Shown here: in pieces, positions 9,378 to 54,331 of the stretch
Numbering within the stretch: position 1 is the stretch's first letter
Layout: each line of letters opens with the position of its first letter
From: Bacterioplanoides pacificum
Lineage (GTDB): Bacteria > Pseudomonadota > Gammaproteobacteria > Pseudomonadales > Oceanobacteraceae
Length of the DNA: 64,000 nucleotides
Direction: 5' to 3'
Assembly: GCF_042648445.1 (NCBI RefSeq)
Contig: NZ_JBHRYB010000001.1
Span: 626,711 to 690,710, forward strand
Translations under genes and position numbers: made by a program
Notes under the pieces: model-generated
The model's database searches: none
The model's input: only the letters and a program-made list of their open reading frames with translations
What the model was told of the DNA's origin: nothing

Positions 9378-9457
9378 ATGGCCGCAGCCACAGCGCTCCG
9401 CCCCGGGGCCCTGTGATTGGAAACGCCGTGATTAGAAACGCGGCGATCGGATCGTTT

Positions 9458-30201: not shown

Positions 30202-30264
30202 TGTAAACTGCCGGCCAGCTGCCGCGGTGGCGGCTGGTTATTCAATGAGGCACAGGGAGTAGGG

Positions 30265-30948: not shown

Positions 30949-31009
30949 CAGGCTGTTAAACAGCCACCTTCACCGGTTGTCAAAAACCGGTATTTAAAAC
31001 AAACAGGAA

Positions 31010-32977: not shown

Positions 32978-33060
32978 TACGCTGGTGCCTGTAACCATAG
33001 CGGTTGCAGGCACACCTGATTAACGGATCAATGCCCGGCTGATGGGATAAGGAAAAGTAC

Positions 33061-36000: not shown

Positions 36001-38508
36001 GATCACGATGCCACGCTGTTATTACGCGCTCTGATACCGGCGCTTGATGGCGCCGATCTGCTGCGCTACGACCCGCTGAGCCGTGCGCTGGCGCAGGTAT
36101 TCTGGTCGAATATTAAGGAGCTGGCACGTTCTGACGAAAAACCAGCGCTGATCAGGGACGAGCCGGATGACAATCCGCAGCAGAAAAAACAGGCGGCATT
36201 GTGTGTCAGCACCTGGCCATCCCGGGCCCAGTCAGCCGCGCAAATGGCGTCGGTCTTTCAGAGTAATGAAGCGGTGGCCTTATTGGCTGCCGAAGTCCGT
36301 ACGTTATTGCAGCAATTTATTGCACAACATCCGATTGCTGTCAGTCAGCTGGATATTCGCCGGGCGGCGGATTATTTAGTTGCTGAGCTGGGACGTGAGG
36401 ACAGCGCTTTTATTGGCAGTAAATACGCCCGCCAGCTGGTGGATGAGCTGAAGCGTTCGCTGGATGACGAAACCTGGCGCCGTTATCAGATGGCACTGGA
36501 TAACATGCTGGGCTGGCCTGCGGAACGCTGGAATCTGACCTCTGCCTGGTTGCAGGCACTGGTCGATGACAAAGGCTTGCCGAAGCTGGCGCGTTATATT
36601 CCGGAGGCGGTGGCGCTGATCAACGCCAATGAGCGTATTGAGCGACGTTTTACTGAAACTGATCTGGAGCTCAGTGTCGGCGGCCTGATGGGGGACCACC
36701 CGTTATTACAGCAACAGACACTGGCGTTTGCTGTGGATGCTTTTTTATTAAAAATGGAGCATCACCTGCATGAAGTGGTGCCAGCTTACCAGCGTTATCT
36801 GTCATTACGTCAGCAAACCATCAGTGAACAGAGAGAGGCGCTGCGGCTTGAAGAGTTTAAGCCAAGACCACTCAGTTCATTTGTCCGTAACCGCCTGATT
36901 AATGAGTCCTATCTGCCGATTATTGGTGATAACCTGGCAAAACAAATGGGCACCATCGGTGAAAATAAACGGGCCGATTTAATGGGCCTGCTGATGATGA
37001 TATCACCACCGGGCTACGGTAAAACCACCCTGATGGAGTACGTCGCCAGCCGTCTGGGGTTAATTTTTATGAAAATTAACTGTCCGTCTCTGGGTCACGA
37101 AGTGACATCACTGGATCCGGCTCAGGCGCCGGATGCCACCTCCCGCAAGGAGCTGGAAAAACTGAATCTGGGTCTGGAAATGGGCAATAACGTGATGCTG
37201 TATCTGGATGATATTCAGCACACCGACCCAGAGTTTTTGCAGAAGTTTATTTCACTGTGTGACGGCACCCGGCGTATTGATGGTGTCTGGCAGGGTAAAA
37301 CCAAAACCTATGATATGCGCGGACGCAAATTCTGCGTGGTTATGGCGGGTAACCCGTACACCGAATCCGGCGATGTTTTCAAAATTCCGGACATGCTCGC
37401 TAACCGTGCGGACATCTATAACCTGGGTGATATTCTCGGTGGTATGGAAGAGCAGTTTGCCCTCAGTTACATTGAAAATGCGCTGACCTCCAACCCGGTG
37501 CTGGCACCGCTGGCGGTACGTGATCTGGCGGATGTTTATAAACTGGTGGATCTGGCCAAAGGACGTGACGTGGCAACCACGGATTTGTCTCACCAGTACA
37601 GTGGTGCGGAAATTTCTGAGATCACCAGCGTGTTGCAGAAAATGATGGTCGTGCAGGATGTGGTGCTGAAAATTAATCAGCAATACATTGCCTCTGCTGC
37701 CCAGGATGATAAATATCGCACCGAACCTTCGTTCAAGTTGCAGGGCAGTTACCGCAACATGAATAAAATGACAGAAAAAATTTCTGCCGTGATGAATAAC
37801 GAAGAGCTGATGCAGATGATCGCTGACCATTACCTTGGTGAGTCACAATTGCTGACCTCCGGTGCCGAAGGCAACCTGCTGAAACTGGCAGAGCTGCGCG
37901 GCAATATGACGCCGCAACAACAACAACGCTGGCAACAAATTAAAGACGATTTTATACGTAATAAAGCCATGGGCGGTGATGATGCGGATACCGGTGCCCG
38001 GGTTGTGGCTCAGCTGGTGGATCTGGTGGCCGGCGTTGAAGCCGGTGTGCAGACCTTGTCGGCCAATGCTCAGCAGCAGCAACGTCATCTGCATGAGCAG
38101 AGTCAGCAAGTACGGCAACAACATTTACAGCAGCATGAACAGCAGCAACAAAGTCAGCAGGCGTTATTAGCAGCCAGTAATAAAGCCTTTCAGCAGAGTA
38201 ATCAGCAACTGGCTGGCAGTGTGTTAACCGGACTGAAACAATTTGCTGAAGCGCTGCAGCAGATTAAACCTCAGGTGAGTGTGGTGAATCAGCCGGTCCC
38301 GGGGATGGACAAAATTCTGCGCGTGTTGGCTGAAACCATCGAGCACAGTATTTTCCCGCTGGTGCGCAGCATGGATAAAAAAATTGATATCGACTTACGC
38401 ACCCACGACAAAATGCGTGATATCTCCGATCAGTTGCGTCAGCTGGAGCAGCAGGTAACGACCAGCGGTGATTCTCAGAGTGCCAATAGTGGGCATGAGC
38501 ACAATTAA
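33061..38508 (+). CDS. giant (1815 aa) multidomain protein with central AAA+ P-loop ATPase module and long coiled-coil/Gln-rich regions
   Basis: Walker A SPPGYGKTTL (~aa 1320), Walker B VMLYLDDIQH and sensor MAGNPYTE, which is MoxR/dynein-like. The N-terminal ~430 aa are non-helical, possibly a beta-rich fold. The C-terminal Q-rich tail carries the (CAG/CAA)-encoded poly-Gln stretch. Confidence 0.6.
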   Translation: MAEQQQAADIVDSAVAEGGAYDIIKKRLQEQGGQLEQAIDTLNQARTDEFGQSDMKVVGRTRIRTENNCIARDMVQVGGHLLFGYNVFIGLKKETRVDDVFALFDVQQRDGQYEAVAVDPAGTFLADPSFVSDFDELYRYYKHTRLVELTVKKGKLLAGFQIGERLEDVRVFRWSVSADGQTVSYIDNRGERDIQLPPAYDFEWTETSRDDSVNGRHPHINILDTVFVETVGGSLTIKIENNTEDGLGIYQEDVEDRTQSLDDADIFYAAVGGLILLRIKPYREQQWRHFIYNTLTETVVRVDAIGESCVQLPEDHGIIFPGGFYLSNGDYKQFDESTAGLRFKRKFRSPNGEDMLYIFYQPVSGEVGLLSYNLIDKNLQNPVYGHGYALADNGQLVIFSAESEATRVHPMQIWETPYQSAEFASRAPASQTFYGRIGNAELVRGVSDLYSVVRMVNNQSVSARLYEELTKAALKTFDDHYWLAESETSQIAGLLKDIAATSELVIDEFEKVQSIRKQSAKAMTEAEGEQKSLLQAVQTESWDSAEEYVSALARIRRQRGHLMTLRDLRYIDVSRLEQLDAELQQVEENLSERTVGFLADEQALQPYQEKVADINQQIDSATSVAMLDPVIEQIDESASQLDLLSELMGTLKVDDATLRTRIIDAISQVYSQLNQSKARARHKHKSLGSDEAIAQFGAQFKLFSQSIANALGMASTPEKCDEQLSRLLVQLEELESQFSEFDEFLADIMEKREELYESFESHKQQLQDEIQRKAQSVTDAASRILTSIEKRSLKFTQQDELNTYFASDALVIKIREQVEQLRQLDASVKADDVEARLKAIKEQALRSLRDKTDIYEDGGNVIKLGPRHKFSVNTQELDLTIIPREGLLNIHLSGTDFYQPIDDPELLALRPFWDMNLESETPQVYRAEYLASLILEAARQHNDGLSMEQLRHALLSDELDELVQRFAAPRYKEGYQKGIHDHDATLLLRALIPALDGADLLRYDPLSRALAQVFWSNIKELARSDEKPALIRDEPDDNPQQKKQAALCVSTWPSRAQSAAQMASVFQSNEAVALLAAEVRTLLQQFIAQHPIAVSQLDIRRAADYLVAELGREDSAFIGSKYARQLVDELKRSLDDETWRRYQMALDNMLGWPAERWNLTSAWLQALVDDKGLPKLARYIPEAVALINANERIERRFTETDLELSVGGLMGDHPLLQQQTLAFAVDAFLLKMEHHLHEVVPAYQRYLSLRQQTISEQREALRLEEFKPRPLSSFVRNRLINESYLPIIGDNLAKQMGTIGENKRADLMGLLMMISPPGYGKTTLMEYVASRLGLIFMKINCPSLGHEVTSLDPAQAPDATSRKELEKLNLGLEMGNNVMLYLDDIQHTDPEFLQKFISLCDGTRRIDGVWQGKTKTYDMRGRKFCVVMAGNPYTESGDVFKIPDMLANRADIYNLGDILGGMEEQFALSYIENALTSNPVLAPLAVRDLADVYKLVDLAKGRDVATTDLSHQYSGAEISEITSVLQKMMVVQDVVLKINQQYIASAAQDDKYRTEPSFKLQGSYRNMNKMTEKISAVMNNEELMQMIADHYLGESQLLTSGAEGNLLKLAELRGNMTPQQQQRWQQIKDDFIRNKAMGGDDADTGARVVAQLVDLVAGVEAGVQTLSANAQQQQRHLHEQSQQVRQQHLQQHEQQQQSQQALLAASNKAFQQSNQQLAGSVLTGLKQFAEALQQIKPQVSVVNQPVPGMDKILRVLAETIEHSIFPLVRSMDKKIDIDLRTHDKMRDISDQLRQLEQQVTTSGDSQSANSGHEHN

Positions 38509-39703: not shown

Positions 39704-40726
39704 TTGGTTCCATTCTCTATGTTACTACTAGCGCTAACGAGTGATTACCCTGAAAGCGCGTGGAAGAACTATTTTCGCTATATGACCGGAGCTTCTCTGA
39801 GGACCGTAAATCATAATTTGAGTACAAAGACAGGCGAAGAATTTATGGCTTGGCTCATCTCAAAAGCAGAGAAAAACCAGAATTTTCCTGAGACGTTAAG
39901 GCAGGACTTTTCAGATTTTAAGCAGGCGAGAGAGAATGGTAGGGATTGCATAATGCCAGGTCGGAATATGGCATTGGCAGAGCACTATGGTGTTGAATCA
40001 TTTTATAGCATGAAGCTGATTGACTTGATGGCGTATCCCTTCTCATCTGATTTCACTAACGGAAGTCTGGATCGCGCAGACGATTATATTTTCTGGGCTC
40101 AACATTATCCGTATTCTGAAATCATTGCTTATGTTGGTGATAGATATTTTTGGAAATTTCAGATTGAAACGCGTCTTGCAATGGATGCTCTGGTTATGTC
40201 GTTGGCTTGTCTTGCTTTGGATTCTGGTGACTATGTTGAAAACATTGATGATATAATGAACATGGTGATTATCCCTTATCTTAATAAGAGTAAGAGTGAA
40301 AAATCTTGCCGTGGTCACTGGTTTAAACAGCTTAGGAATAAGGTATGTGAAAAACACTCTTTAGGTGTCAGTGACTTTTATGGCTCTATTGCAATAGGTG
40401 ACGAAGACCCGGATAACGTCGAAAAGCGATACAAACGTTGGATGAGCGGTAATAACCAGGCAACAGAGACAAAAGTTGGTGAGTTGTTACAGCAGCTTCA
40501 GAAAGAATTTGAATGGGATGATAGGGATGTTATGGCGGCAGCGAATGCATATAAGTTCTATTGTTCGGTTCCTTTATTAAATTCATCATTAAATTCATCT
40601 GATCTGGGTATTCTGCATTCAGTACCGTGTGGCGATGTTGGCTTTAAGGTTCGTGAAGAATTCAATGACGATTTTTCTGAACGATTTAAGTTCTGGATGA
40701 TGTCACTTTCAGAACAGTTTAAATAA
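39704..40726 (+). CDS. hypothetical protein (340 aa, low GC)
   Basis: Long ORF with foreign-looking codon usage and no recognisable motif. Confidence 0.45.
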   Translation: MVPFSMLLLALTSDYPESAWKNYFRYMTGASLRTVNHNLSTKTGEEFMAWLISKAEKNQNFPETLRQDFSDFKQARENGRDCIMPGRNMALAEHYGVESFYSMKLIDLMAYPFSSDFTNGSLDRADDYIFWAQHYPYSEIIAYVGDRYFWKFQIETRLAMDALVMSLACLALDSGDYVENIDDIMNMVIIPYLNKSKSEKSCRGHWFKQLRNKVCEKHSLGVSDFYGSIAIGDEDPDNVEKRYKRWMSGNNQATETKVGELLQQLQKEFEWDDRDVMAAANAYKFYCSVPLLNSSLNSSDLGILHSVPCGDVGFKVREEFNDDFSERFKFWMMSLSEQFK

Positions 40727-40964
40727 TAAAGCCTACTCCAAGGAGTAGGCTTTTCTTGTCAGCGTTTGGGTGGGTTGTTTCCACGTCCTTTCCCAGAGCT
40801 GTTACCGGTTGTGCTGGGACCGTTGTGTGGTCTCGGTGCAGTTTTGGCCATTGTTTTGTCTCCATTTTTATACTCGACATTGAGTTCTTGTATAAAACCA
40901 GAGCAATGTCGCCAGTCACAGGGACATCCGGCAGCAATTAGATAAATAAAACTCTATTTCATCG

Positions 40965-42068
40965 TCATGGAGAGGGTATTTCCCACACGCCTTTCAGCCT
41001 TTCCACGGTATGCCGCCACTTGGTCGCGGTCGGCTTACAGACCGTGTTCTGATTACCAAATAACCCGGTTTCACTGAATGCTTTGCCGGTGGCCTCGGTA
41101 TGCAGCCAGTTGACGGGCACAATGTATTCGGCCATTTCGTCAGGCTCTGCAGCAAAGTCACTGTAATCCATCTGAGTTGGCAGGCTGGTTAATGGCTTAC
41201 CGTCGATACAGAAGTCGCTGATGCGCTGGCGTTCGCCGCTAACAATGCCCACGCCAACATAACCTGTTTTAGGGATGTTCACCCAGACCCGGTCGCCTTC
41301 GGCCAGCATATTCAGAGTGTTGGAATACCACTGGCCGGCACCGGCTGAGATAAATCCGTATTTAAGAGCGTCTTCCCAGTTACGGCGCTCGCCATGGCCG
41401 AAGGATACATAGAACTCGCCATTCCACGGCTCGCGGGCGCCACGGGTGCTGACCAGTTGCTGAGTCTCCTGTGGGTCGATCATCCAGGCACGGGACAGGT
41501 AGCGGTTATTGCCGTCAGTAAATGCAGAAAAGAACACCGCGTTAATACCCACGCCATGGCGGTTGTTCAGGTAGGTGATGATGCGCTCGGTACTGGCATC
41601 CAGCTCAGATGCCACAATCACCATCTGGTGGGAATCATTGATGCTGATGTCTTCCAACGGCTGACCAAATTTCGCCTTAAAAGCTGCATCCAGGCTTTGC
41701 ACTGGCAGCTTATGCTTGGTGGCGAAGTCGACGTAACAATCGACCAGCTGATTGTCTTCCAGCGTTTCTATCCACGAAGCGTAATCAATAGCCTGCGCCA
41801 CCACATCCCGCGGTGTTTTATCGCGCTTTAGTTCAATGATGATGACGCTGCCGTTGGCATCCAGTGCCAGCAGGTCGATGCGCTTATCAAAGCTGGTGCG
41901 TACCTGACGGCCTATCAGCAGCCAGTCGGCGTTGATGATGGATACATCCTGCACAATCAGCTCTTCCAGCTGGTTTTCATCGTCCAGGCGGGCGGTCTCC
42001 AACCGGGTTGGTGTGCTGGCTGTGCTGTTGCCGGCGTTGATGCGCCAGATGCCTTGTTGAATGGCCAT
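40965..42068 (-). CDS. PD-(D/E)xK nuclease fused to EVE/PUA-like domain; candidate modification-dependent (type IV) restriction endonuclease
   Basis: N-terminal IDLLALDANGSVIIIELKRDK (D…ExK core, NucS/DUF91-like). The C-terminal half has an EVE-like pattern: …QWYSNTLNMLAEGDRVWVNIPKTGYVGVGIVSGE…. Confidence 0.5.
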   Translation of the reverse strand: MAIQQGIWRINAGNSTASTPTRLETARLDDENQLEELIVQDVSIINADWLLIGRQVRTSFDKRIDLLALDANGSVIIIELKRDKTPRDVVAQAIDYASWIETLEDNQLVDCYVDFATKHKLPVQSLDAAFKAKFGQPLEDISINDSHQMVIVASELDASTERIITYLNNRHGVGINAVFFSAFTDGNNRYLSRAWMIDPQETQQLVSTRGAREPWNGEFYVSFGHGERRNWEDALKYGFISAGAGQWYSNTLNMLAEGDRVWVNIPKTGYVGVGIVSGERQRISDFCIDGKPLTSLPTQMDYSDFAAEPDEMAEYIVPVNWLHTEATGKAFSETGLFGNQNTVCKPTATKWRHTVERLKGVWEIPSP

Positions 42069-42235: not shown

Positions 42236-43858
42236 TTATGGCTCAAAAAAACTGGCTGGCGGTGATTGCATGGTTCTTTCCATACCATCGCGCAGTGATT
42301 CGAGCTTTAACATAACCTTGCGGTTTTGTGCGTTAAGAATATCCGGTGATACCCATTGGCGATCATCAAAACCGCCAATGTAAACTCTTTCCGTTCTGGT
42401 TTCCCCAGACATCAATCCACGTTCACCAAAACCGACGTAGAGGGGTTTTTGGGTTGTAAAAACGGGAGTCCTTCCGTTGTTCAGGTATAGCCTGGCATGA
42501 ACGTAACCACTGCTGAGGGTTTTGTCGCTCTGGTTGCGTACTGTCACTTGTATGTTGGGTTCGATGCGACCAAAAGAGCCTTTCGTATATTGCAGTTTTA
42601 CATCCAGTATTTCTAAGTCGGCGTTACCGATGCCAACACTGTCCCCATTACTGAAGATAGTTTTTAGTTTACTGATATCCGGTAACACTTTTGCGACCTG
42701 GTTTGCTGTCGTGGTATTGGTATCAAGGCCGCTATGTACGCCCAGCTGGTCAAAGCTCGACGATTTGATCGGGACACTCTTCCTCATGCCATCGCTTATG
42801 CCAATCAAATTCAAAATCAGCTGCCGGTCGCTGGCATTCAGAATGTCGGGGGATTTCCAGCGCTCCTCTGAAAATCCACCCATGCTAACGCGGGTAGTAA
42901 CGGTTGAATTAGGCTTCAGGCCATGGTCACCAAAGAAAATGTACAGATTTTCACGGCTTCGCCCTGCGCTGGTATCTACCGCAGGTTCCTTCTGACCCTG
43001 GATATATAAGCGAGCATCCAGTTTGGCGGAACTTAAATACAGTTCTGTTTTGTTATTCACGGTTATTTCAATGAATGGTTCCGTACTTCTGAAGCTACCC
43101 TCACGATAGCTTAAACGAATATCGGTAATTTCAAGATAGTTGTTTGGAATGGCAGTGTGTCGCCCCTGCTGCATGTGTTTACGCCAGGCAGACGTTTCAT
43201 TTTTATCAGTATTTGAAATTGGCTTTGGTATATCTTTCTTATCAGCAACCTCAATATTTTTTTCAGTAACTTTCGCTGAAGACTTTGGTTCATGCTTAGT
43301 GGTTTGCGATGCAGACGATGGTTTGGGTTGTGGCTTCTGTAGTGCAGCCCGAACCTCTGTATTTTGTTGCCCCAGTTCAGAAACAAGCTTAATAGTCTTC
43401 GTGCCTTCTGGAATTACGAGGGGTTGTACATGTTTAGTTGGCTTTTGATTAATAAGCCATTGATACCCCATATAGAGAACAAGCATGACCATCACCCAGC
43501 GCCAGAACCGCCGACGAGGTTTTGCGGCTGGTATCGGCTTCAAGCCAGAAGCAGGGTCTTGCTGCATTGTTTTAGCACGCTGCATTGTCTGATCAGTCAC
43601 CAACTCTTCCAACTGAGCAACGGCCTTTCTTGCAGTATCCAGAAAAATTTCAGGCTCGCTCAATTCAAAATCATGTTCATGCATCATCTTGTTACGAATC
43701 GTGGCGACATAGCGCAACTTTTTAAGCAACGGCGCTGGAATATAGCGCTCGGCATGTGACAACTTTTCATGCATACCACGCCCTTCGGCCTTGAAGTGCG
43801 TTTCCAGAATATGCTCGGCCTTTTTGGTGTGGTTAATAACCTGTTCGATGATGCTCAT
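42236..43858 (-). CDS. membrane protein with N-terminal DUF4145 (HEPN/Swt1-like) domain, one TM helix and two periplasmic ~150-aa tandem repeats
   Basis: …LRYVATIRNKMMHEHDFELSEPE… is DUF4145-like. TM helix FWRWVMVMLVLYMGYQWLI. The two repeats are YLEITDIRLSYREGSFRSTEPFIEITV…GGFSEERWKSPDILNA and DLEILDVKLQYTKGSFGRIEPNIQVTV…GGFDDRQWVSPDILNA. Confidence 0.5.
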   Translation of the reverse strand: MSIIEQVINHTKKAEHILETHFKAEGRGMHEKLSHAERYIPAPLLKKLRYVATIRNKMMHEHDFELSEPEIFLDTARKAVAQLEELVTDQTMQRAKTMQQDPASGLKPIPAAKPRRRFWRWVMVMLVLYMGYQWLINQKPTKHVQPLVIPEGTKTIKLVSELGQQNTEVRAALQKPQPKPSSASQTTKHEPKSSAKVTEKNIEVADKKDIPKPISNTDKNETSAWRKHMQQGRHTAIPNNYLEITDIRLSYREGSFRSTEPFIEITVNNKTELYLSSAKLDARLYIQGQKEPAVDTSAGRSRENLYIFFGDHGLKPNSTVTTRVSMGGFSEERWKSPDILNASDRQLILNLIGISDGMRKSVPIKSSSFDQLGVHSGLDTNTTTANQVAKVLPDISKLKTIFSNGDSVGIGNADLEILDVKLQYTKGSFGRIEPNIQVTVRNQSDKTLSSGYVHARLYLNNGRTPVFTTQKPLYVGFGERGLMSGETRTERVYIGGFDDRQWVSPDILNAQNRKVMLKLESLRDGMERTMQSPPASFFEP

Positions 43859-43960
43859 AGTCTGTTTCCGTACATAACCAGCGCACTCCTGCGCTGGATT
43901 CTTGTGGTTGCCTTGTATTTAACAGTCAGTGTCGTGTGTTGGTTGAATTGGGTTCATTGC

Positions 43961-45850
43961 TCAGTTCAGCGCTTGCTCGATGATGGCGTCGGTGAGGTTT
44001 AGCTGGGTTTCGCTCGCCTGCTGCAGGCGGTCTTTCAGCTGGTCACAGAGGGCGAATAGCTCGCCGACTTTGGCGATGACATTGGTTTGTTCAATTTCAG
44101 ACGGGAAAGGGCAGAGTAAATTTTCTAGTTTTCCCTGGTAAATTGCCCAGACGTTGGTGGTTCCGGATTTTATTTTATCAAGTTCATACTTTCCCGATAT
44201 GCTTCGCATCCAAATATCAATAAAATAAGATGTTGCTGGTTTTGAGAACTTAGCGCGTAGAATATTATTGTTATATAGTATTTTTATATTTTTTTTATTT
44301 TCAAAAACACATGTTTTTCCTACAAGCTCTTTGCTGTTTCTTGTATTGAATAAGAAATCACCAGAACTCAAATGGAATTTTAGTGCTTCTTCTTCTGTTG
44401 CATCCACATTCGTGATTTCTGCAATGTCGAAACCTCCAGTATTTAATATGTTATTCATTTTGAAATAGGGGTACTTCAAGTCGGGTGACTGACTATTTTT
44501 CCCCTTATCTATTCCCACGTGATGTTCAAGTGATAGTGTTCCGAATCTCACCCACTCCCACCCCTCTGGCAGTCCAAACGGTTTCTCTTCGTCACTCACC
44601 GGCGGCAGTTTTTTCGGCTTTTTGATTTTGCCTTCTTTCACCAGTCGGGCTTTTTCGGCGTCGATGCGTTTTAGCAGTTCTGACGCGGGTTCATCCTCTG
44701 GGTTTTGTTGCACCAGTTTACCCATAACGGCGAGTTGGAGGATGGTGTCTTTCAGGCGGTCGATGGCCCAGGCGCCCATGGGGCCGGAGAACAGCAGGTC
44801 GAAGTGTTGGGCGAGGCGTTGCCAGTTATCGCTGAGTTCTTGGGCGTTAGCTGACTCTGTCAGCGTTGCCAGCAGGGTGTCGGTTAGTTGCTGGTGGGCG
44901 GTGAGCTGGTGTTCGCTCTGTTGCTCCAGCTGGTCGCAGAGGGCCATCAGTTCATCGACTTTGGCGACGATACGTTGTTGTTCGGCGAGAGGGGGGAGCG
45001 GAATGCATATATTCCCCCATTTGCCTTTATTCAATATCGAAATGGTAGTGCTTGATGAATTACTCCACGCCATCTCTTGAAAGTATGAACTGCTCAGAGC
45101 TGCGAGCAGATATTCTTCCATAGGCAAGAAGGGGGTTATGGAATTGATCTGTTGATTGAAGCTACAGCGTTCGCGAGATATTGCGCACTTGCCAATAGTC
45201 CCAATACATACCATCAGTAAGGAACCTTTCGGCACCTCTCGACCTAAAGCATTTAGACCCGATTCAGATAGAAACTCGCTAGAGTTCTTCAGTATTCCTT
45301 GGTCAATGTCGCCTGGCTTCACGAATGGGATGTTGCCAGTGAAATATTCTGCCTTTCCTTTCGCTGGTGTCCCCCCTGTTTGGGTATTTCCCAAATTCCC
45401 CAGCCTTACCCATTCCCATCCCTCAGGCAGCTCAAAAGGCTTTTCGTCGTCATTCACCGGCGGCAGCGGCTTCTGCTTTTTCAGCTTACCGTCTTTGACC
45501 AGCTGCGCTTTTTCCGTCTCGATGCGCTGCAGTAACTCTGCAGCCGGTTCGTCATCCGGGTTTTGTGGTACCAGTTTGCCGCGTACGGCCAGCTCTAAAA
45601 TCAGCTCACGCAGTTTTTTGATGCCGGTGAGTTCGAGCTTGCTGCTTTTCCCGGAACCACGGCCGCGCCCAGCGGTGGATTTGGGTGTGACGGTGCTGGT
45701 CCAGAGGTCGAGGTGTTCTGTGACCAGTTGCTGGGGGGGTCGTTGCTCTTTACCCGCCGCAGGCGCTTGGCTGTCCGAACGCTCTGGTGGATTTTGACCA
45801 GCTATCTCTGCTTGGTAGCGCGCTGCGCCTTCGTTGATCTGGTTGCTCAT
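43961..45850 (-). CDS. hsdS: type I restriction-modification specificity subunit HsdS (long form, two TRDs)
   Basis: Conserved HsdS spacer regions occur twice (…KPFELPEGWEWVRLGNL… / …KPFGLPEGWEWVRFGTL…), each followed by a target-recognition domain. Start overlaps the hsdM stop by 4 nt. Confidence 0.85.
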   Translation of the reverse strand: MSNQINEGAARYQAEIAGQNPPERSDSQAPAAGKEQRPPQQLVTEHLDLWTSTVTPKSTAGRGRGSGKSSKLELTGIKKLRELILELAVRGKLVPQNPDDEPAAELLQRIETEKAQLVKDGKLKKQKPLPPVNDDEKPFELPEGWEWVRLGNLGNTQTGGTPAKGKAEYFTGNIPFVKPGDIDQGILKNSSEFLSESGLNALGREVPKGSLLMVCIGTIGKCAISRERCSFNQQINSITPFLPMEEYLLAALSSSYFQEMAWSNSSSTTISILNKGKWGNICIPLPPLAEQQRIVAKVDELMALCDQLEQQSEHQLTAHQQLTDTLLATLTESANAQELSDNWQRLAQHFDLLFSGPMGAWAIDRLKDTILQLAVMGKLVQQNPEDEPASELLKRIDAEKARLVKEGKIKKPKKLPPVSDEEKPFGLPEGWEWVRFGTLSLEHHVGIDKGKNSQSPDLKYPYFKMNNILNTGGFDIAEITNVDATEEEALKFHLSSGDFLFNTRNSKELVGKTCVFENKKNIKILYNNNILRAKFSKPATSYFIDIWMRSISGKYELDKIKSGTTNVWAIYQGKLENLLCPFPSEIEQTNVIAKVGELFALCDQLKDRLQQASETQLNLTDAIIEQALN

Positions 45851-47331
45851 TTGGCGGTTTCTCCGCCTTTTTCGCCCGTGAGAGCAGCAGCCAGTATGCC
45901 TTTGAGCTGGTCGCGCAGTTTCTGGATGTCGTTCTGCTGGTCGGCGTATTGGGCCAGCAGTTCGTCCGGGTCGTGGCTGATTTGCTCTCCGACGTGTGGG
46001 TTTTTGATATCCAGGTTGTAGTTGCGCGCCTGAATATCGCTAAGGCTCACTTTCCAGGCTTGTTCGTTTTCTACACGTTTGGCAAAGCCGTCGGCTTCGT
46101 TGCCCCACCAGTCGATTTCGGTGGCGAATTCGTCAAAGCGCATGGGTTTGGTTTTGCTGTAGCTTTTGTAGCCTTCCGGGTACGGGTGTTCGTAGTACCA
46201 GATGTTCTCGGTCGGTTGGCCTTTGGTGAAGAACAGCAGGTTGGTTTTGATGCCGGTGTATGGGTTAAACACGCCGTTGGGCAGGCGCACGATGGTGTGC
46301 AGGTTGCAGTCATTGAGCAGGCGTTCTTTTAAGCGGGTTTTCATGCCTTCGCCGAACAGAAAGCCATCGGGCAGTACCACGGCGGCGCGGCCACCGTCTT
46401 TCAGCAGGCGGATAAACAGGGCCATAAAGAGGTCGGCGGTTTCGCGGGTGCGGAACTCGGCCGGGAAGTTGTTTTCAATGCCGTCTTCTTCGGTGCCACC
46501 AAACGGCGGGTTAGCCACAATAACGTCGACACGCTCTTTTGGCCCCCAGTCGCGGTAAGGGCGGTTGAGGGTGTTGTCGTGGCGAATCTGATCAGGCGTT
46601 TCGATGCCGTGCAGAATCATGTTGGTGGTGGCCAGCAGGTGCGGCAGTGGCTTTTTCTCAACGCCGTGTATGGTCTGCTGCAGGACTTTTTCGTCTGTTG
46701 GTGACTGCACGTAGCGTTTGCGCTTGTGCTCGATGGTGCAGGTTAAAAAGCCGCCGGTGCCGCAGGCTGGGTCCATCACGCTATCTTCGAGTTTTGGATC
46801 GACGCGGTCGACCATAAATTCGGTGACGGCACGGGGTGTATAAAACTCGCCTGAGTTACCAGCACTTTGCAGGTCTTTCAGAATCTGTTCGTACATGTCG
46901 CCGAAGGCGTGACGCTGCTGCGATTTGTTGAAGTCGATACCTTCCTGAATTTTGTTGATGACCTGACGGATCAGCTGACCAGATTTCATGTAGTTGTAGG
47001 CGTCTTCGAAGACGCTGCGAATCACGGCGGCGCGTTTGTCGCCAGCGATTTCGAGGTTCTGCAGGCCAGGGAAGAGTGTGGCGTCGATAAAGTTTTTCAG
47101 TTCGTCGCCGGTAATGCCTTCCGGGTTAGCTGCCCAGTTACGCCAGCGCATAGCGGTCGGTATCGGGCTTTTGTAATTGTCGTCAAAGAGTTCCCACTCT
47201 TGTTCGCGGTCGTCGTAGATTTTGAGAAACAGCATCCAGACTAGCTGGCCGATGCGCTGGGCGTCGCCGTCGACGCCGACGTCTTTGCGCATGATGTCTT
47301 GGATGGATTTGATTACGGTGCTGATGCTCAT
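45847..47331 (-). CDS. hsdM: type I R-M DNA methyltransferase HsdM
   Basis: N6-adenine MTase motifs: ANPPFG (motif IV) and the SAM-binding DPACGTGGFL. Confidence 0.9.
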   Translation of the reverse strand: MSISTVIKSIQDIMRKDVGVDGDAQRIGQLVWMLFLKIYDDREQEWELFDDNYKSPIPTAMRWRNWAANPEGITGDELKNFIDATLFPGLQNLEIAGDKRAAVIRSVFEDAYNYMKSGQLIRQVINKIQEGIDFNKSQQRHAFGDMYEQILKDLQSAGNSGEFYTPRAVTEFMVDRVDPKLEDSVMDPACGTGGFLTCTIEHKRKRYVQSPTDEKVLQQTIHGVEKKPLPHLLATTNMILHGIETPDQIRHDNTLNRPYRDWGPKERVDVIVANPPFGGTEEDGIENNFPAEFRTRETADLFMALFIRLLKDGGRAAVVLPDGFLFGEGMKTRLKERLLNDCNLHTIVRLPNGVFNPYTGIKTNLLFFTKGQPTENIWYYEHPYPEGYKSYSKTKPMRFDEFATEIDWWGNEADGFAKRVENEQAWKVSLSDIQARNYNLDIKNPHVGEQISHDPDELLAQYADQQNDIQKLRDQLKGILAAALTGEKGGETAK

Positions 47332-47453: not shown

Positions 47454-49952
47454 TTAACCGGCTTCGTCGTTGTAGAGGGTATTTTCCAGTTCACGCAGTG
47501 CTTGTTCGTAGCCACTTTTGTCGCCGAAGGCGTTGATCAGCTCCATGCCGGTTCCCAGTTTGTCGAATGGGGGAAGCTGCAGAATCTTGATGTCTTCGAT
47601 GCTCTGTACGCCGGTGTCGGCGTATTTATCAAGCAGGGTGTCGAGTACGGTTTGCGCCTGCTTACTGTAGCGGTCGAAGATGTTACGCCGGCGTTTGGCT
47701 TGTACGGCGCGCTGCTTGCGGGTGAGGGCTGGCTGGTCGTATACGATGTGGGTAATCACATCGAAGGGGTCGGGTTCGTCGCCGAGTTTGCCTTTAAGGT
47801 CGTCGATCAGGTCGTCCCAGGAAACGCCCTGGGCGGTCAGTTCGTCGATAACCGCTTGTTTGCGTTCGGCTTCGTTCCAGCGTTTGAGGAAATCGCTGAG
47901 GGTGGCGTAATGGCCCTGCACCGACTTGCGGGTGAAGTCGGTGAGGTTTTCGGTAATGAGTTTGCCATCGCTGTCGAGATGCTGAATGCGCTGGTCGATG
48001 ATGCTGAACTCGACGTCGCCAATGCGGAATTTTTTCTTCGGCTCGCGTGGCTCGTCACCGGGTTCCCAGGGGCCTGTTCCGGTATCTGCGCCACTATTGC
48101 CCGATGAGGTGCCGTATTCGCCTTCCGGTTCTTTGATGCCGGTTGGCTGTTCAGTACCGTTTTCGTTTGTCGGGTCGGGCGGCAGAATATCGTCGTTATC
48201 ACTGGGGACGTATATCTGTTCGGGGTCGCCGTCGAATTTTTCATCGGCGAACAGTTCCGTCGCTTTCTTAAAATCGAGAATGGTAAACCACTGCTTGCCG
48301 TAGGCTTCGTCGATACGGGTGCCGCGGCCAATAATCTGTTTAAACTCGGTCATCGACTGTATGCGCTGGTCGAGCACTACCAGTTTGCAGGTTTTGGCAT
48401 CGACGCCGGTGGTCATCAACTTACTGGTACAGGCTATAACCGGATAGGGTTCTTCCGGATCGATAAAGTGGTCGAGTTCGGCTTTGCCTTCTTTGTCGTC
48501 GCCGGTGATGCGCATAACGTACTTACGGTTTTTGGCGACCTGCTCCGGGTTCAGGTTAACCAGTAGCTGGCGCATACGCTCTGCGTGGTCGATGTTTTCG
48601 CAGAAGACGATGGTTTTCTGCATAGGGTCGGTTTTTCGCATGTATTCGGTGATGGTCTGGGCAACCAGCAGGGTACGCTGGTCCATAACGATATTTTTAT
48701 CGAAATCGCGCTGGTTGTAGATGCGGTCGTCGATCAGCTGGCCGCTTTTGTCTTTCTGCCCTTTGTTCGGACGCCAGCCCTGCAGGTCTTTATCGAAATC
48801 GACACGAATAACTTTGTAGGGGGCCAGGTAACCGTCGTCGATGCCCTGTTTCAGTGAGTAGGTGTAAACGGGTTCTCCAAAGTAGTGGATGTTGGATACT
48901 TCTTTGGTTTCTTTGGGCGTGGCGGTGAGGCCGATGTGGGTGGCGCTGTCAAAGTATTCGAGAATTGCCCGCCATGCTGAGTCTTCTGCGGCACTGCCGC
49001 GATGGCACTCGTCGATCACAATCAGATCGAAGAAATCGGGTGAGAACTGTTTGTAGACGTTGCGTTCTTCTTCGGTGCCACTCAGGGCCTGATACAGACC
49101 GAGGTAGATTTCATAGGAGGTGTCTACCTTGTTGACCCGGTCTTTGTCTTTTTTAACGGCGAGTTCGATATCCAGCTTTTTGCCGTTGCGTTCCATACCG
49201 CCACCTCGTGGCGATAGCTTGGCCATGGCGCCAGCGAAGGGTTTGAAGTCGTTGTTCATGGTCTGGTCGACCAGAATGTTGCGGTCGGCCAGGAACAGAA
49301 TGCGTTTCTTCTGTTTCGACTTCCACAAACGCCAGATTATCTGAAAAGCGGTGTAGGTTTTGCCGGTACCGGTGGCCATAACCAGCAGAATACGGTCTTG
49401 CCCTTTGGCGACGGCTTCAATGGTGCGGTTAATGGCCACCATCTGGTAATAGCGCGGCGTTCTGTCGTTGGCGGCTTCGTGATAGGGCTGGCTCATGGCG
49501 GCCTGACCATCCGGGATATCTTTCCAGCGGCAATAGGCTGCCCACAGGGTATCGGGGCCTGGTAATTCGCTCAGAGCAATTTCGGTTTCTACTTGTGGGT
49601 AGATCAGCCCGTGCGGGTCACGGAACAGGAAGCTATCGCCATTACTGCTGATGGCGAAGGGCACGTCCAGCTTTTCGGCATAATCCATCGCTTGCTGCAT
49701 ACCGTCACCAACGCGGTGCTTGTTGTCTTTGGCTTCGATAACGGCAATGGGCTTGGCTTTCTGGTAGCAGAGAACATAGTCGGCCCGGCGTGGGGCCTGG
49801 CGGCTGTGCATTCGGCCACGCACGACGATACGGCCATCGCTGACAGAAAATTCTTCATAGACCTGGGTCTGGATATCCCAGCCAGCGCTGATAATGGCAG
49901 GTGTGATGTACTTGGTGCGGATATCCGTTTCGGTCAGGCTGCGCTTATCCAT
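47454..49952 (-). CDS. hsdR: type I R-M restriction subunit HsdR (helicase/endonuclease)
   Basis: 832 aa. N-terminal PD-(D/E)xK-like region, Walker A MATGTGKTYTA, DEAH-like IVIDECHR, and helicase C motifs (QIIGRGTR). Confidence 0.9.
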   Translation of the reverse strand: MDKRSLTETDIRTKYITPAIISAGWDIQTQVYEEFSVSDGRIVVRGRMHSRQAPRRADYVLCYQKAKPIAVIEAKDNKHRVGDGMQQAMDYAEKLDVPFAISSNGDSFLFRDPHGLIYPQVETEIALSELPGPDTLWAAYCRWKDIPDGQAAMSQPYHEAANDRTPRYYQMVAINRTIEAVAKGQDRILLVMATGTGKTYTAFQIIWRLWKSKQKKRILFLADRNILVDQTMNNDFKPFAGAMAKLSPRGGGMERNGKKLDIELAVKKDKDRVNKVDTSYEIYLGLYQALSGTEEERNVYKQFSPDFFDLIVIDECHRGSAAEDSAWRAILEYFDSATHIGLTATPKETKEVSNIHYFGEPVYTYSLKQGIDDGYLAPYKVIRVDFDKDLQGWRPNKGQKDKSGQLIDDRIYNQRDFDKNIVMDQRTLLVAQTITEYMRKTDPMQKTIVFCENIDHAERMRQLLVNLNPEQVAKNRKYVMRITGDDKEGKAELDHFIDPEEPYPVIACTSKLMTTGVDAKTCKLVVLDQRIQSMTEFKQIIGRGTRIDEAYGKQWFTILDFKKATELFADEKFDGDPEQIYVPSDNDDILPPDPTNENGTEQPTGIKEPEGEYGTSSGNSGADTGTGPWEPGDEPREPKKKFRIGDVEFSIIDQRIQHLDSDGKLITENLTDFTRKSVQGHYATLSDFLKRWNEAERKQAVIDELTAQGVSWDDLIDDLKGKLGDEPDPFDVITHIVYDQPALTRKQRAVQAKRRRNIFDRYSKQAQTVLDTLLDKYADTGVQSIEDIKILQLPPFDKLGTGMELINAFGDKSGYEQALRELENTLYNDEAG

Positions 49953-51907: not shown

Positions 51908-53071
51908 TTATAGATTATCCGCCCACCACTGAAGCATTTCCGTTCGTTCTTCCAGATAGTCCGCCCGGTTGTAGGCTTTACGTATCTGATTGCGCTCTTC
52001 GTGGGCCAGTTGTTTTTCGATCACATCCGGCCTGAATCCGGCTTCATTCAATACGGTTGAAGCGGTGGAGCGTAATCCGTGAGTGGTGGTGTGCTCTTTG
52101 AAGCCTGTGCGTTTAAGCAGCACCAAAAAGGCATTTTCAGACAAAGGCTTCTCAATGGTATTGGGGCTTCGCAAAAGCCATTCAGTGTGGCCCGTGTGTT
52201 GTTTAAGCTCTGTCAGTACATCAATGGCTTGACGGCTTAAGGGTATCAGGTGGTCTGTCTTCATTTTCATACGCTCTGCCGGAATTAGCCAAAGCTGCTT
52301 TTCAAAGTCGATTTCACTCCAGCGACCAAAGCGTACTTCACCGGTTCGGGTCATGGTCAGTATTAGCAGCTTAAGTCCTAGCTTTACTACCGGGTGGCCT
52401 CCGTATGCGTCGATACTGGTCAAGAAACTCCCCATCATTGCGAATGGTAAGGCACGCTGATGGTTGACGGCTGGTACGGCTTTTAGCGCTGGAGTGATAC
52501 CTGTTACCGGGTTGTTTTCGACGAGTCCTTCAGCAATGGCAAATGCAAAGATACCTTGAAGGTAATTTTTTACTTTGCGGGTGGTTTCACCAATGCCTTC
52601 GTTTTCCATTAAGCGCAGTACAGTCAATACGTCGGCGCTGGTAATCTGGTGAATGGGTTTGTCGCTAAGGTAGGGCATTAAGCGCCGGTCAATCATCTGG
52701 CGAACTTTGAGCGCGTAGCGCGGTGTCCATCTGGGGGTATTGAGTTCGTGCCAGCGGTAAGCCAACACCCCAAAAAGATTCTGAGCCTGAATACGTTGTA
52801 GGCGCTTGGCTTCCATGCGTTCGTCGGTGGGATCAATGCCTTTGCGAATCTTAGATTTGGCAATGTCGCGTTCTTGTCTGGCTTCCTTTAACGAATAATC
52901 GGGGTATTGGCCGATGGTATAGGCTTTCTCCTTGCCATCTAGGCGGTATTTTACCCGCCACGATTTGATCCCTGTTTTGCTAACCATCAAATACAAGCCG
53001 CCAGCATCAGATAGCTTATATCCCTTATCCTTGGGCTTTGCGGCTTTGATAGCGGCAACGGTCAATGACAT
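51908..53071 (-). CDS. int: tyrosine-type site-specific integrase (P4-like, DUF4102 arm-binding N-terminus)
   Basis: MSLTVAAIKAAKPKDKGYKLSDAGGLYLMV… N-terminus and the C-terminal catalytic region R…HGLR…Y. The start at 53071 is preceded by AAGGAGA. Confidence 0.85.
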   Translation of the reverse strand: MSLTVAAIKAAKPKDKGYKLSDAGGLYLMVSKTGIKSWRVKYRLDGKEKAYTIGQYPDYSLKEARQERDIAKSKIRKGIDPTDERMEAKRLQRIQAQNLFGVLAYRWHELNTPRWTPRYALKVRQMIDRRLMPYLSDKPIHQITSADVLTVLRLMENEGIGETTRKVKNYLQGIFAFAIAEGLVENNPVTGITPALKAVPAVNHQRALPFAMMGSFLTSIDAYGGHPVVKLGLKLLILTMTRTGEVRFGRWSEIDFEKQLWLIPAERMKMKTDHLIPLSRQAIDVLTELKQHTGHTEWLLRSPNTIEKPLSENAFLVLLKRTGFKEHTTTHGLRSTASTVLNEAGFRPDVIEKQLAHEERNQIRKAYNRADYLEERTEMLQWWADNL

Positions 53072-53361
53072 TGGTTGTTCTCCTTGTGGGGGTATTGGAG
53101 CTACCCGAACACGATACCCCCTGTGCAATACCCCTAACTAGGAGCGGTTGTCCATAGACGTTGCTGGTCGCCTGAGAATATGAATGTCAGTATTAATGCG
53201 GCTTTGGGGGTGGTTTAGAGGTTGTTTCATGTGCGGTAAAGCAGGAAGTGAGCAAATTTCTAGATAACTTGAGCTGATTGTTCCGTATATAGAAGTAATG
53301 GTTGTTAATGAACCTCTATTGGATCTAACAATAAGAGTCAATAATGGCGCCTCAGCTTTTC

Positions 53362-53835
53362 CTAACCAGTGAACTCTAATCTGTATGTAAAGCTATATGG
53401 CCTCGACAGATTACTCAGTAGACAACCGGCTATGCCTCCTCCTAGAAGAAAAAGAAGCCAATTACCGCTTTTAGTATAGCTACCAGCTACTCCTCCTAAT
53501 ATCGCACCAATTAAAGTAGCTTGCAGCTGAGGACTATACTTCCTACCCTGAATTAGCATATATGCAATATGTTCACAGTTATTACCGACTACTTCGTACC
53601 GATGATCATTGTTCAAGATACGCTCCAACCTCTTGGTCAATAATGAGTGATCATCTACATGGCTACGAATTACCTTGACTGGTTTCCCTTCGGAATACTG
53701 ATCAACAGAGATTAGTTCAACATTGTTCTGAGGGCTGTTATGCAAAACTTGCCCATTGCCCAGGTAAACCCCTGCATGCTGAATAATGCCTTTGCTTCTA
53801 TATAGCAAATCACCGGATTTCAGATTATTATTCAT
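53362..53835 (-). CDS. PLAAT/LRAT-like (NlpC/P60 superfamily) phospholipase A/acyltransferase with C-terminal TM anchor
   Basis: HAGVYLGNGQVLH matches the PLAAT H-box (HWAIYVGDGYVVH) and NNCEHIAYML matches NCEHF with a catalytic Cys. The C-terminus has two hydrophobic helices. 157 aa. Confidence 0.7.
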   Translation of the reverse strand: MNNNLKSGDLLYRSKGIIQHAGVYLGNGQVLHNSPQNNVELISVDQYSEGKPVKVIRSHVDDHSLLTKRLERILNNDHRYEVVGNNCEHIAYMLIQGRKYSPQLQATLIGAILGGVAGSYTKSGNWLLFLLGGGIAGCLLSNLSRPYSFTYRLEFTG

Positions 53836-53852
53836 TTACAAACTTCCTATTC

Positions 53853-53888
53853 ATTTACGTTTTACGCAAATATACATTAAACGTAAAT
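53853..53888. promoter_or_regulatory. candidate operator: 10-bp perfect inverted repeat ATTTACGTTT…AAACGTAAAT (plus direct repeat TTCATTTAC)
   Basis: Lies in the divergent intergenic region between the PLAAT-like gene and the XRE regulator. Confidence 0.45.
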
Positions 53889-53933
53889 AGTTGCAAACTT
53901 GCTTTGTCCTAAATAGTATAAATTTGGTGATTT

Positions 53934-54314
53934 ATGAATGCTGAACAAACGTCCTATTCTGCTGTTTTGGGTGTTGTCTTGAGCAACCTCCGTAAAGAGC
54001 GCCGTATTGAACAAGGCGAAATGGCGGCAAGAATGGGGCTTTCTCAAGCAAGCTATAGTCGTCTTGAAAGTGGAAAATCAGCTTTTTCTATCGATCAGAT
54101 GTATCAGGCTGCCTCTGCACTAGGAATAGATGAGAGTGAAATTACAACTCGTCTAAATTCCACAGTTATCCAGCTAAATGCCAATGGAGTACGCGTCGTC
54201 CCTCAGTTAAGGGGAAACACCACACAAGCGAAACAGGAAAGCTCTGATGTCGGAAATTTTATCGCTGGAGCAGCGTTAGGTGGATTACTAATTGGACTAC
54301 TGAGCCGGAAATAA
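53934..54314 (+). CDS. XRE/Cro-C1-type HTH regulator with C-terminal transmembrane helix
   Basis: …EMAARMGLSQASYSRLESGK… is an HTH_XRE. The C-terminus is FIAGAALGGLLIGLLSRK. Its stop lies 18 nt before the giant STAND gene. Confidence 0.65.
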   Translation: MNAEQTSYSAVLGVVLSNLRKERRIEQGEMAARMGLSQASYSRLESGKSAFSIDQMYQAASALGIDESEITTRLNSTVIQLNANGVRVVPQLRGNTTQAKQESSDVGNFIAGAALGGLLIGLLSRK

Positions 54315-54331
54315 CACAGACAGGATGTCAA

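Follow-up and report, generated by a model that had tools for sequence, protein, structure and literature searches.

A predicted single-pass membrane HEPN protein with a duplicated β-sandwich ectodomain, encoded next to hsdS in Bacterioplanoides pacificum

HEPN ribonucleases (RNases) carry an Rx4-6H motif and are usually dimers with a composite active site (PMC3710099; PMC13017515). Here we compare the described HEPN systems with gene X, which encodes a protein of 540 amino acids (aa) in a 64,000-nucleotide (nt) stretch of Bacterioplanoides pacificum DNA (contig NZ_JBHRYB010000001.1, positions 626,711 to 690,710; hereafter the window). Anantharaman et al. 2013 described three groups of membrane HEPN proteins, namely a transmembrane (TM) segment with a WP signature joined to HEPN, a helical domain followed by TM and an Abi2/Swt1 HEPN, and a HEPN with two TM segments and a Zn ribbon; the external parts were proposed to be sensors, with an explicit analogy to Ire1 (PMC3710099). 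The same survey noted DUF4145 domains in restriction-modification (R-M) and McrBC operons, and treated PrrC as a HEPN RNase kept in check by a type I R-M enzyme (PMC3710099). In RAZR, the DUF4145 domain is an active single-stranded RNase (ssRNase), required for phage defence and activated by assembly on phage protein rings (PMC13017515).

The product of X is a predicted single-pass membrane protein in which a HEPN domain is followed by one TM helix, a linker and two β-sandwich repeats. None of the three membrane groups of the 2013 survey combines HEPN, one TM helix and a tandem β-sandwich, nor does that survey describe the tail-anchored short family with swappable ectodomains to which we trace X below (PMC3710099). 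RAZR/PD-T7-4 is a soluble protein whose zinc finger is N-terminal and whose HEPN domain is C-terminal, and it senses cytoplasmic phage protein rings (PMC13017515), whereas X has an N-terminal HEPN domain, a TM helix and predicted periplasmic β-sandwiches, and falls below the Pfam DUF4145 threshold. The eukaryotic KEN proteins Ire1 and RNase L follow the logic proposed for X, with a far-side sensor, a single TM helix and a HEPN-type RNase that dimerisation or clustering switches on, an activation that is hypothetical in X. The Ire1-type combination of extracytoplasmic sensor, single TM and cytoplasmic HEPN is, by prediction, found in X. Unlike Ire1, however, X has no kinase domain, its HEPN domain is N-terminal so that the order is reversed, and the relationship lies just at the superfamily level.

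Other systems resemble X in their genomic setting. PrrC (EcoprrI) is also a HEPN-superfamily gene in an hsd operon beside hsdS, and it forms a second line behind restriction, as is proposed likewise for X. PrrC is, however, soluble, has an ABC-ATPase regulatory domain and is encoded between hsdS and hsdR, whereas X lacks an ATPase, is membrane-anchored, carries its HEPN domain at the extreme N-terminus and is encoded at the operon end after hsdS. ShdA of the Shield system, as summarised in PMC11090510, is a membrane-anchored nuclease whose gene often lies within type I R-M operons, but it combines an N-terminal TM and a coiled coil with an RmuC-like DNase, in place of the RNase-type HEPN and large periplasmic part of X. 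The Ishtar anti-plasmid proteins (bioRxiv 10.64898/2026.07.06.735840), compared here by their description, are like X monogenic, patchily distributed and located near defence genes, and they too join an N-terminal DUF4145/DUF3644 HEPN to an uncharacterised β-rich C-terminal domain; they differ in that no TM is reported and the C-terminal domain consists of β-sheets plus three helices. The N-terminal DUF4145 of Ishtar also means that the usual position stated in the first-pass annotation of this DNA, as a C-terminal add-on, is no rule. In the literature searched, we found no description of a HEPN domain with one TM helix and tandem β-sandwiches, or of the short tail-anchored proteins. HEPN proteins associated with membranes and the link of DUF4145 to R-M and McrBC operons were known already (PMC3710099); what is new is that the HEPN-TM core forms a large unnamed family, of which X is a rare long form.

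X occupies 42236..43858 on the minus strand, as do all parts of its product given below, and is an open reading frame (ORF) with an ATG start, as first annotated; a B. pacificum record holds an identical protein under the UniRef name ‘DUF4145 domain-containing protein’. The whole protein was modelled with AlphaFold2 (AF2) on six full-length homologues (mean predicted local distance difference test, pLDDT, 73.7). Residues 1–99 (43562..43858) form the cytoplasmic HEPN domain, with modelled helices at 3–22, 29–39, 42–60 and 69–99 that fold as a four-helix up-down bundle, as the HEPN superfamily requires. In the full-length model, helices 2 and 4 span 29–35 and 69–98, disorder covers ~138–221, and the two β-sandwiches lie at ~235–365 and ~405–530. 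Matches of this N-domain also include MtlR, HepS, Csm6, AbiA and the sacsin HEPN, and the full model gives the same matches.

Sequence scans of X with Pfam, NCBIfam, PHROG and PADLOC returned nothing above threshold. The gathering threshold of Pfam DUF4145 (PF13643) was not reached, with no match of the full protein at E <= 1 or of aa 1–113 at E <= 10, and the only Pfam trace of the N-domain was HEPN_Swt1 (E 0.05; 14 bits, where the cut-off is 27.5). When PDB sequences were searched with a profile of the N-domain, chance matches alone came up (uL10/Mrt4, E ~0.2), and the precomputed Pfam field reads ‘-’ for all relatives. A profile search with the N-domain recovered 102 proteins, from which an alignment of 85 sequences was made; E15, L18, G26, G28, H30, R49, A52, R55, N56 and H60 are invariant in it. 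When these relatives were scanned one by one, 46 of the 85 showed a weak, sub-threshold DUF4145 match (best E 4.4e-4), while HepT-like, HEPN_Apea and HEPN_Swt1 were matched by 17, 7 and 6, respectively. Several family members are named DUF4145 by NCBI and UniRef.

A HEPN domain is defined by Rx4-6H at the end of helix 3, in which the residue after the arginine is usually N, D or H, together with an acidic residue in helix 2 (PMC3710099). In X, the Rx4H motif R55-N56-K-M-M-H60 (43679..43696), with the polar N56 after the arginine, closes helix 3 (42–60), and a family-specific motif, G26-R-G-M-H30-E31-K32 (43763..43783), stands at the start of helix 2 and would supply the helix-2 acidic residue, E31. 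On this basis the N-domain of X is predicted to be a canonical HEPN domain, apparently catalytic, and probably nearest to DUF4145 yet below the Pfam threshold; since that threshold is not reached, X is formally not a DUF4145 member. The RNase motif appears intact and of the metal-independent type. The first-pass annotation had described a DUF4145 domain with a Swt1-type HEPN fold. Its HEPN assignment is borne out by the fold and the strictly conserved Rx4H, and DUF4145 appears to be the nearest Pfam family through the weak matches of relatives, but the label does not hold for X itself, and the 2013 survey sets DUF4145 apart from the Abi2/Swt1 group (PMC3710099).

R55, N56 and H60 are invariant not only in the 85 relatives but also in all 33 further long-form representatives recovered with the repeat profile described below. 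E31 is invariant in six close homologues and is Q in the Vibrio short forms, while GxGxH is retained in 16 of the 33 further long forms. A long-form subclade (P0111, P0114, P0116, P0118, P0119, P0125 and P0136) has GRGM[TK]EK in place of GRGxHEK and keeps RNxxxH, hence H30 is not essential family-wide.

Beyond the HEPN domain, ~17 flexible residues lead to a single TM helix (aa 116–136, 43451..43513, RFWRWVMVMLVLYMGYQWLIN), which is modelled as helical. The sole hydrophobic stretch of X lies here (aa 118–136) and has KPRRR directly before it, in agreement with the one TM helix first proposed. It is followed by a disordered periplasmic linker of ~85 aa (aa 137–221, 43196..43450; pLDDT < 50) rich in K, P, T, Q, S and E, and then by two β-sandwich repeats with strands in the AF2 model, repeat 1 at aa 236–366 (42761..43153), reading GGFSEERWKSPDILNA, and repeat 2 at aa 409–534 (42257..42634), reading GGFDDRQWVSPDILNA. 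The linker is the least conserved part of X, with 17–32% identity to P0003–P0006, compared with 58–61% for the HEPN domain and 44–52% for the repeats against P0003–P0005. In an internal comparison the two repeats are 41% identical across 138 aa (E 4e-35), so by this measure they are a true duplication. Both are modelled confidently as β-sandwiches. The duplicated domain and shared motif of the earlier description are thus present, although each copy measures ~130 aa and not the ~150 aa given there.

Foldseek matched the tandem repeats to Ig/FN3/arrestin-like pairs (Vps26, WxLIP, IL-17RA, transglutaminase barrels and RbmA; E 3e-6 to 1e-3), and weak Pfam matches were found to WxLIP_HBD, DUF4352 and DUF2393. 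No enzyme folds were among these Foldseek and Pfam matches, and the modelled ectodomain fold appears to be of a binding or scaffold type. X contains no cysteines, and it has no N-terminal signal peptide because the N-terminus is the hydrophilic helical domain. X is predicted to be a type II (N-in, C-out) inner-membrane protein. An extracytoplasmic position of the repeats, as first annotated, is supported by the charge bias around the TM helix, by lipobox-bearing lipoprotein relatives that share the domain, and by Excalibur and Cys-pair domains in the equivalent position of other relatives. As the β-sandwich also occurs in lipoproteins, it is taken to be exported. The ~85-residue tether, if extended, is long enough to span the periplasm.

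The conserved core of this family is HEPN plus TM, and the ectodomain is optional and swappable. Nearly all N-domain matches are proteins of 115–160 aa in which the HEPN domain is followed by a C-terminal TM helix, a tail-anchored short form found in Vibrio, Planctomycetota, Verrucomicrobiota and other groups, and few relatives lack a TM segment after the HEPN domain. The typical family member is a tail-anchored protein of 116–136 aa. Comparison of the tails at 42 reference-genome loci revealed several different additions to this core. These include one X-type β-sandwich (L018–L020, 342–360 aa), two X-type β-sandwiches (L026, 470 aa, and P0006, 473 aa), an uncharacterised, Cys-containing periplasmic domain behind a coiled coil, in one copy in L043 (Polyangiaceae) and in two copies at aa ~230–660 in four Ferrimonas species (L029–L032, 611–664 aa), and an Excalibur calcium-binding domain in Acinetobacter parvus (L037; 33.3 bits, where the cut-off is 22). 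The Cys-containing domain has the signature LxVGExxIxP…LxVPxxW…LNxxFxxY…GRxCxxxCxxxGDDxF and no Pfam match. In Agitococcus metagenome-assembled genomes (L025:9704-12034 and L038:3556-4263) and in P0105, the HEPN domain keeps the motif GRGLHEK…RNKVVHE and precedes an FtsK α/motor/γ module that is complete (Pfam E 6e-78), hence a predicted RNase domain is there part of a cell-division DNA translocase.

A separate small gene was observed directly upstream of, and co-oriented with, the HEPN-TM gene at L026:9254-9997, L029:9406-9948, L030:9300-9836 and L031 ~9450-9989. Its product contains INPxxGLPM…DVxGNxYG followed by a D/S/G-rich tail, and it is found in Rubrivivax and Ferrimonas despite their different ectodomains. 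This gene may be a lineage-specific partner; it is not present in the window. We rejected the grouping of the ~240–252-aa upstream genes of L018, L026 and L027 as one family, INPxxGLPM being common only to L026 and the Ferrimonas loci.

The distribution of the repeat was determined by an exhaustive HMMER search of 1.84 billion proteins with the repeat profile, using representatives at 50% identity. This gave 102 representatives, 99 of them new. One third of the new ones (33/99) have the HEPN N-domain as well, followed by one repeat in 16 of them and by two in 17, and 51/99 carry the repeat without HEPN, of which 23 begin with a lipobox-type signal. The long form of HEPN plus β-sandwich amounts to ~36 clusters at 50% identity as a lower bound, against six found by word search. 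E. coli genomes contained no DNA similar to X. Among the repeat proteins are lipoproteins of ~250 aa (P0166, P0176, P0187, P0190 and others), unannotated here, with a signal peptide, LxGC[GS]KGLD… and one C-terminal copy of the β-sandwich. Matches of 2000–3800 aa were taken to be unrelated Ig-like repeats, because they covered only profile positions ~9–39, repeatedly. A decayed N-domain (MSIIEHVI…GRGLHEKLSP, then a stop and a frameshift) was seen in Bacterioplanes sanyensis, a species of a related genus (L057:10001-10300), and the stop and frameshift mark this copy as a pseudogene.

These data bear on whether the HEPN domain of X is catalytic at all. X could be a periplasmic binding or adhesin-like scaffold whose HEPN domain is non-catalytic (protein- or RNA-binding or regulatory, as in MtlR) and acts as a cytoplasmic anchor, which would suit an ectodomain resembling binding modules (WxLIP, FN3 pairs, RbmA) and a histidine, H30, that one subclade dispenses with. 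Non-catalytic HEPNs, however, typically lose Rx4-6H (PMC3710099), whereas its residues are invariant in every relative examined here, and since most members have no ectodomain the conserved functional unit is HEPN plus TM. We consider a scaffold role very unlikely.

We tentatively favour a different explanation, to which we give somewhat less than an even chance, namely that X is a membrane-tethered HEPN RNase activated by clustering. The tethered monomer would be inactive. An envelope event would bind or cross-link the ectodomains and bring X molecules together; candidates are the tail or ejection proteins of a phage, a conjugation apparatus, or damage to the cell wall. Two HEPN domains would then pair, complete a composite active site between them and cut RNA on the cytoplasmic side of the membrane, leading to growth arrest. 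X would then serve as an Ire1-like, abortive-infection-type back-up to restriction. Because both linkers of X are flexible, proximity would be the only plausible coupling across the membrane; alternatively, regulated proteolysis might free the HEPN domain. What we infer is that X acts as an RNase, that it must dimerise, how it is triggered and that it confers a defence phenotype. The abortive-infection role first suggested for X has a defence-island setting to its credit, and as a function it stays conjectural. In a wider version, X and its relatives would be ‘outside-in’ RNase switches of bacteria, whose swappable periplasmic receptor (Ig-like pair, Cys-containing domain or Excalibur) senses an envelope event during or before entry of foreign DNA and clusters the HEPN domains; this version seems doubtful.

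The defence setting begins with the operon itself. The genes hsdR (47454..49952, 832 aa; ResIII, HSDR_N and, at the C-terminus, EcoEI_R_C), hsdM (45847..47331, 494 aa; N6_Mtase E 1e-81, plus HsdM_N), hsdS (43961..45850, 629 aa; Methylase_S E 4e-24) and X lie in that order and in the same orientation on the minus strand, so that X stands directly after hsdS and co-oriented with hsdRMS as first reported, at a distance of 102 nt (hsdS stop 43961 to X ATG 43858). The type I set is complete by Pfam (HsdR, HsdM and HsdS), and HsdR has no Pfam DUF4145 of its own. At 167 nt downstream of X is a gene for the PADLOC candidate PDC-S11 (40965..42068, minus strand, 367 aa; E 1e-145), whose sole recognisable domain is an N-terminal NucS_C-type PD-(D/E)xK nuclease (E 8e-7). 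Its C-terminal half (aa ~196–367) gave no Pfam match (E <= 1) and no PDB sequence match, and the EVE domain assigned to it in the first-pass annotation was found by neither search. A terminator-like hairpin follows PDC-S11 on the minus strand (40728..40753; consensus scan only). From hsdR to the end of PDC-S11 the same scan placed no other terminator-like site on the minus strand, and this stretch is compatible with a single transcription unit, without being proven so. The hsdS–X spacer holds a GC-rich hairpin of 8 bp, CCAGCGCA-GGAG-TGCGCTGG (43878..43897), 19 nt upstream of the X ATG, and the spacer including this hairpin is ~97% identical in L010 and L015. Overall the spacer RNA has ordinary stability (z = -0.09), hence we make no claim of a riboregulator.

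In the X clade, the gene moves with a constant hsdS 3′ end, and the adjoining slot is variable for defence genes. The order hsdS then X was seen in the window, L010, L015, L001/L002/L007/L008 and L061/L062. A close relative, P0002 (83% identity; L010), has upstream DNA corresponding to the hsdS end of the window, and downstream an orthologue of PDC-S11 that is 95% identical across the available fragment. P0003 and P0004 (43% identity) show the order hsdS, X, McrB, McrC and a helix-turn-helix protein, while L061 and L062, of the same X lineage, have hsdM, hsdS, X and small unknown ORFs; these two derive from a narrower repeat-alignment locus search that returned three metagenome loci, one a duplicate. 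The P0005 locus (L004) reads 5′-nucleotidase, X, UvrD helicase, PDC-S11 (53% identity) and an AAA_21 protein. Finally, the short form P0007 (137 aa; HEPN 83% identical) has hsdM and hsdS upstream and Abi_2, ParE/Phd, HigBA and a ZorA-like gene downstream. The slot after X thus holds PDC-S11, Abi_2 with toxin-antitoxin pairs and a ZorA-like gene, McrBC, or small unknown ORFs, and all close relatives with readable flanks adjoin R-M, McrBC, PDC-S11, Abi_2, toxin-antitoxin or Zorya-like genes. Co-occurrence with the adjacent nuclease gene, which the first-pass annotation had suggested as a check, is seen, PDC-S11 being present in three of four close lineages. As a separate observation, hsdS at L001:3-2017 (P0004 lineage) follows the tail of a Polysacc_synt_2 gene with a 1-nt overlap and with hsdM not in view, which may reflect an orphan hsdS or the insertion point of an island.

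Homology between the DNA of the window and that of L015 extends over hsdM and hsdS, across the spacer (~97%) and into the HEPN domain as far as about residue 102, and it resumes directly past the X stop. Between these flanks (window 43554-42214 versus L015:3012-4163), the window has the TM and ectodomain and L015 has a short TM tail plus Abi_2. Flanking homology on both sides indicates that the two were exchanged as a cassette.

The recurrent position behind hsdS could mean that X is a PrrC-like guard of the type I system, with its HEPN domain silenced by contact with HsdR/M/S and freed when a phage anti-restriction protein disables the complex; the TM and ectodomain would merely position X, and perhaps the R-M complex, at the site of DNA entry in the membrane. 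X stands straight after hsdS in two lineages that have diverged to 43% identity in X and to barely alignable HsdS proteins, as does the short form P0007, and the conserved hsdS 3′ end and spacer (~97%) without an intervening terminator-like site would suit such a partnership. Precedents exist in PrrC/EcoprrI, in DUF4145 domains recorded fused to restriction endonuclease or superfamily 2 helicase parts and in R-M and McrBC operons (PMC3710099), and in ShdA, a membrane-anchored nuclease encoded within type I R-M loci. However, hsdS is absent from the P0005 lineage, which has a 5′-nucleotidase gene upstream, type I genes occur within 10 kb in just two of ~40 short-form loci (L015 and L055), and the L001 hsdS sits behind a polysaccharide-synthesis gene with hsdM out of view. 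X also lacks the regulatory ABC ATPase of PrrC, and a guard function would leave the duplicated, conserved periplasmic domain without a role. We regard a guard function as unlikely.

Several observations weigh against X as a clustering-activated defence RNase. The DNA of the window, L010 and L015 is near-identical, hence these represent one lineage and not independent associations with defence genes. The TM segment is just moderately hydrophobic (Kyte-Doolittle 1.23), and the two flexible linkers make conformational signalling beyond proximity implausible. No antitoxin or immunity partner of X is evident, and X fits no PADLOC-DB v2 model, its sole match (PDC-M02A, E 0.025, 12 bits) being noise. 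The strongest counter-evidence is the majority of family members without any ectodomain, the housekeeping contexts of many relatives and the FtsK lineage. As most members have no ectodomain, the HEPN-TM core must be able to act or be regulated alone. In V. cholerae the short form stands alone in a conserved housekeeping region with ferritin, DUF2500, YhhN, ftsEX and rpoH in many strains. The neighbours of P0014 are non-defence genes, and the loci of the four Ferrimonas species, Acinetobacter and L018 adjoin PurL, aminotransferase, GSP synthase, Upp, LysR and outer membrane protein genes, with a single NERD protein among them. Together with the HEPN domain inside FtsK in one lineage, these settings argue against an obligatorily lethal toxin.

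The same contexts are what might be expected if X had no defence function, HEPN-TM being a housekeeping membrane-proximal RNase or RNA-binding factor, acting for example on membrane-localised transcripts or in an envelope stress response, and this copy having been carried into the island by recombination at the hsdS 3′ end. The lack of a PADLOC match would also fit. The close relatives with readable flanks, on the other hand, all lie beside defence-type genes, cassette-like swapping and the decayed Bacterioplanes copy are traits of an accessory gene, and the long form is very rare and patchy, with ~36 clusters at 50% identity among 1.84 billion representatives. On this balance a housekeeping role for X is improbable. 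Occurrence in non-defence contexts, named in the first-pass annotation as evidence against its reading, is frequent in the wider HEPN-TM family and tells partly against that reading there, though not in the X clade.

X was also said to lie inside an integrase island. A P4-type integrase is present at 51908..53128, but the island ends could not be fixed: no tRNA was found near the integrase, no Rfam family matched in 38–55 kb, and no direct repeats >= 13 nt, which might be att-like, are common to 38.4–40.0 kb and 52.9–54.5 kb. Several other genes of the window were noted in passing. Convergent with PDC-S11, and sharing the bidirectional hairpin 40728-40753, is a 340-aa ORF (39704-40726, plus strand) in a low-GC patch (0.41), with no Pfam, NCBIfam or PADLOC match and a weak PHROG transposase hint (E 0.0035). 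A co-oriented plus-strand cluster at 29512-38508 encodes PspA/IM30 (E 6e-47), a membrane protein of the YqiJ_N-like type, a coiled-coil protein of 655 aa in which flotillin is only faintly hinted at, and a DUF3686 ‘ATPase involved in DNA repair’ of 1815 aa that also has DUF7902 and AAA_5 domains. The cluster resembles a module for membrane stress or of the flotillin type and has no relation to X. To the right of the integrase, GC falls to ~0.38–0.42 across 53362-60664. The minus strand there encodes an LRAT/NlpC-P60 protein that ends in a glycine zipper (53362-53835), and the plus strand a protein of 2110 aa that weakly matches an NPHP3_N/STAND-type NTPase (54332-60664). This stretch may be a second defence-like island segment.

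The architecture of X is real and rare, the general idea behind it is not new, and its defence role is one that we infer. To our knowledge, the cues sensed by almost all HEPN defence effectors characterised so far are cytoplasmic, for example cyclic nucleotides, phage proteins or the loss of an antitoxin. A HEPN domain joined by a single TM helix to exchangeable periplasmic domains would offer a case in which the coupling of envelope-level sensing to RNA cleavage can be tested, and if the ‘outside-in’ reading is true, X would be a prokaryotic functional counterpart of Ire1 through which infection is sensed from outside the cytoplasm. An envelope-sensing HEPN was raised as an idea by Anantharaman et al. 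2013 (PMC3710099), and we found no test of it in the literature searched. The hsdS 3′ slot is recombination-prone, and defence genes are exchanged there. More broadly, an unnamed family of ~120-aa tail-anchored HEPN proteins is common in Vibrio, Planctomycetota and other groups, and its optional ectodomains and FtsK fusion provide natural variants for dissecting how these proteins are regulated.

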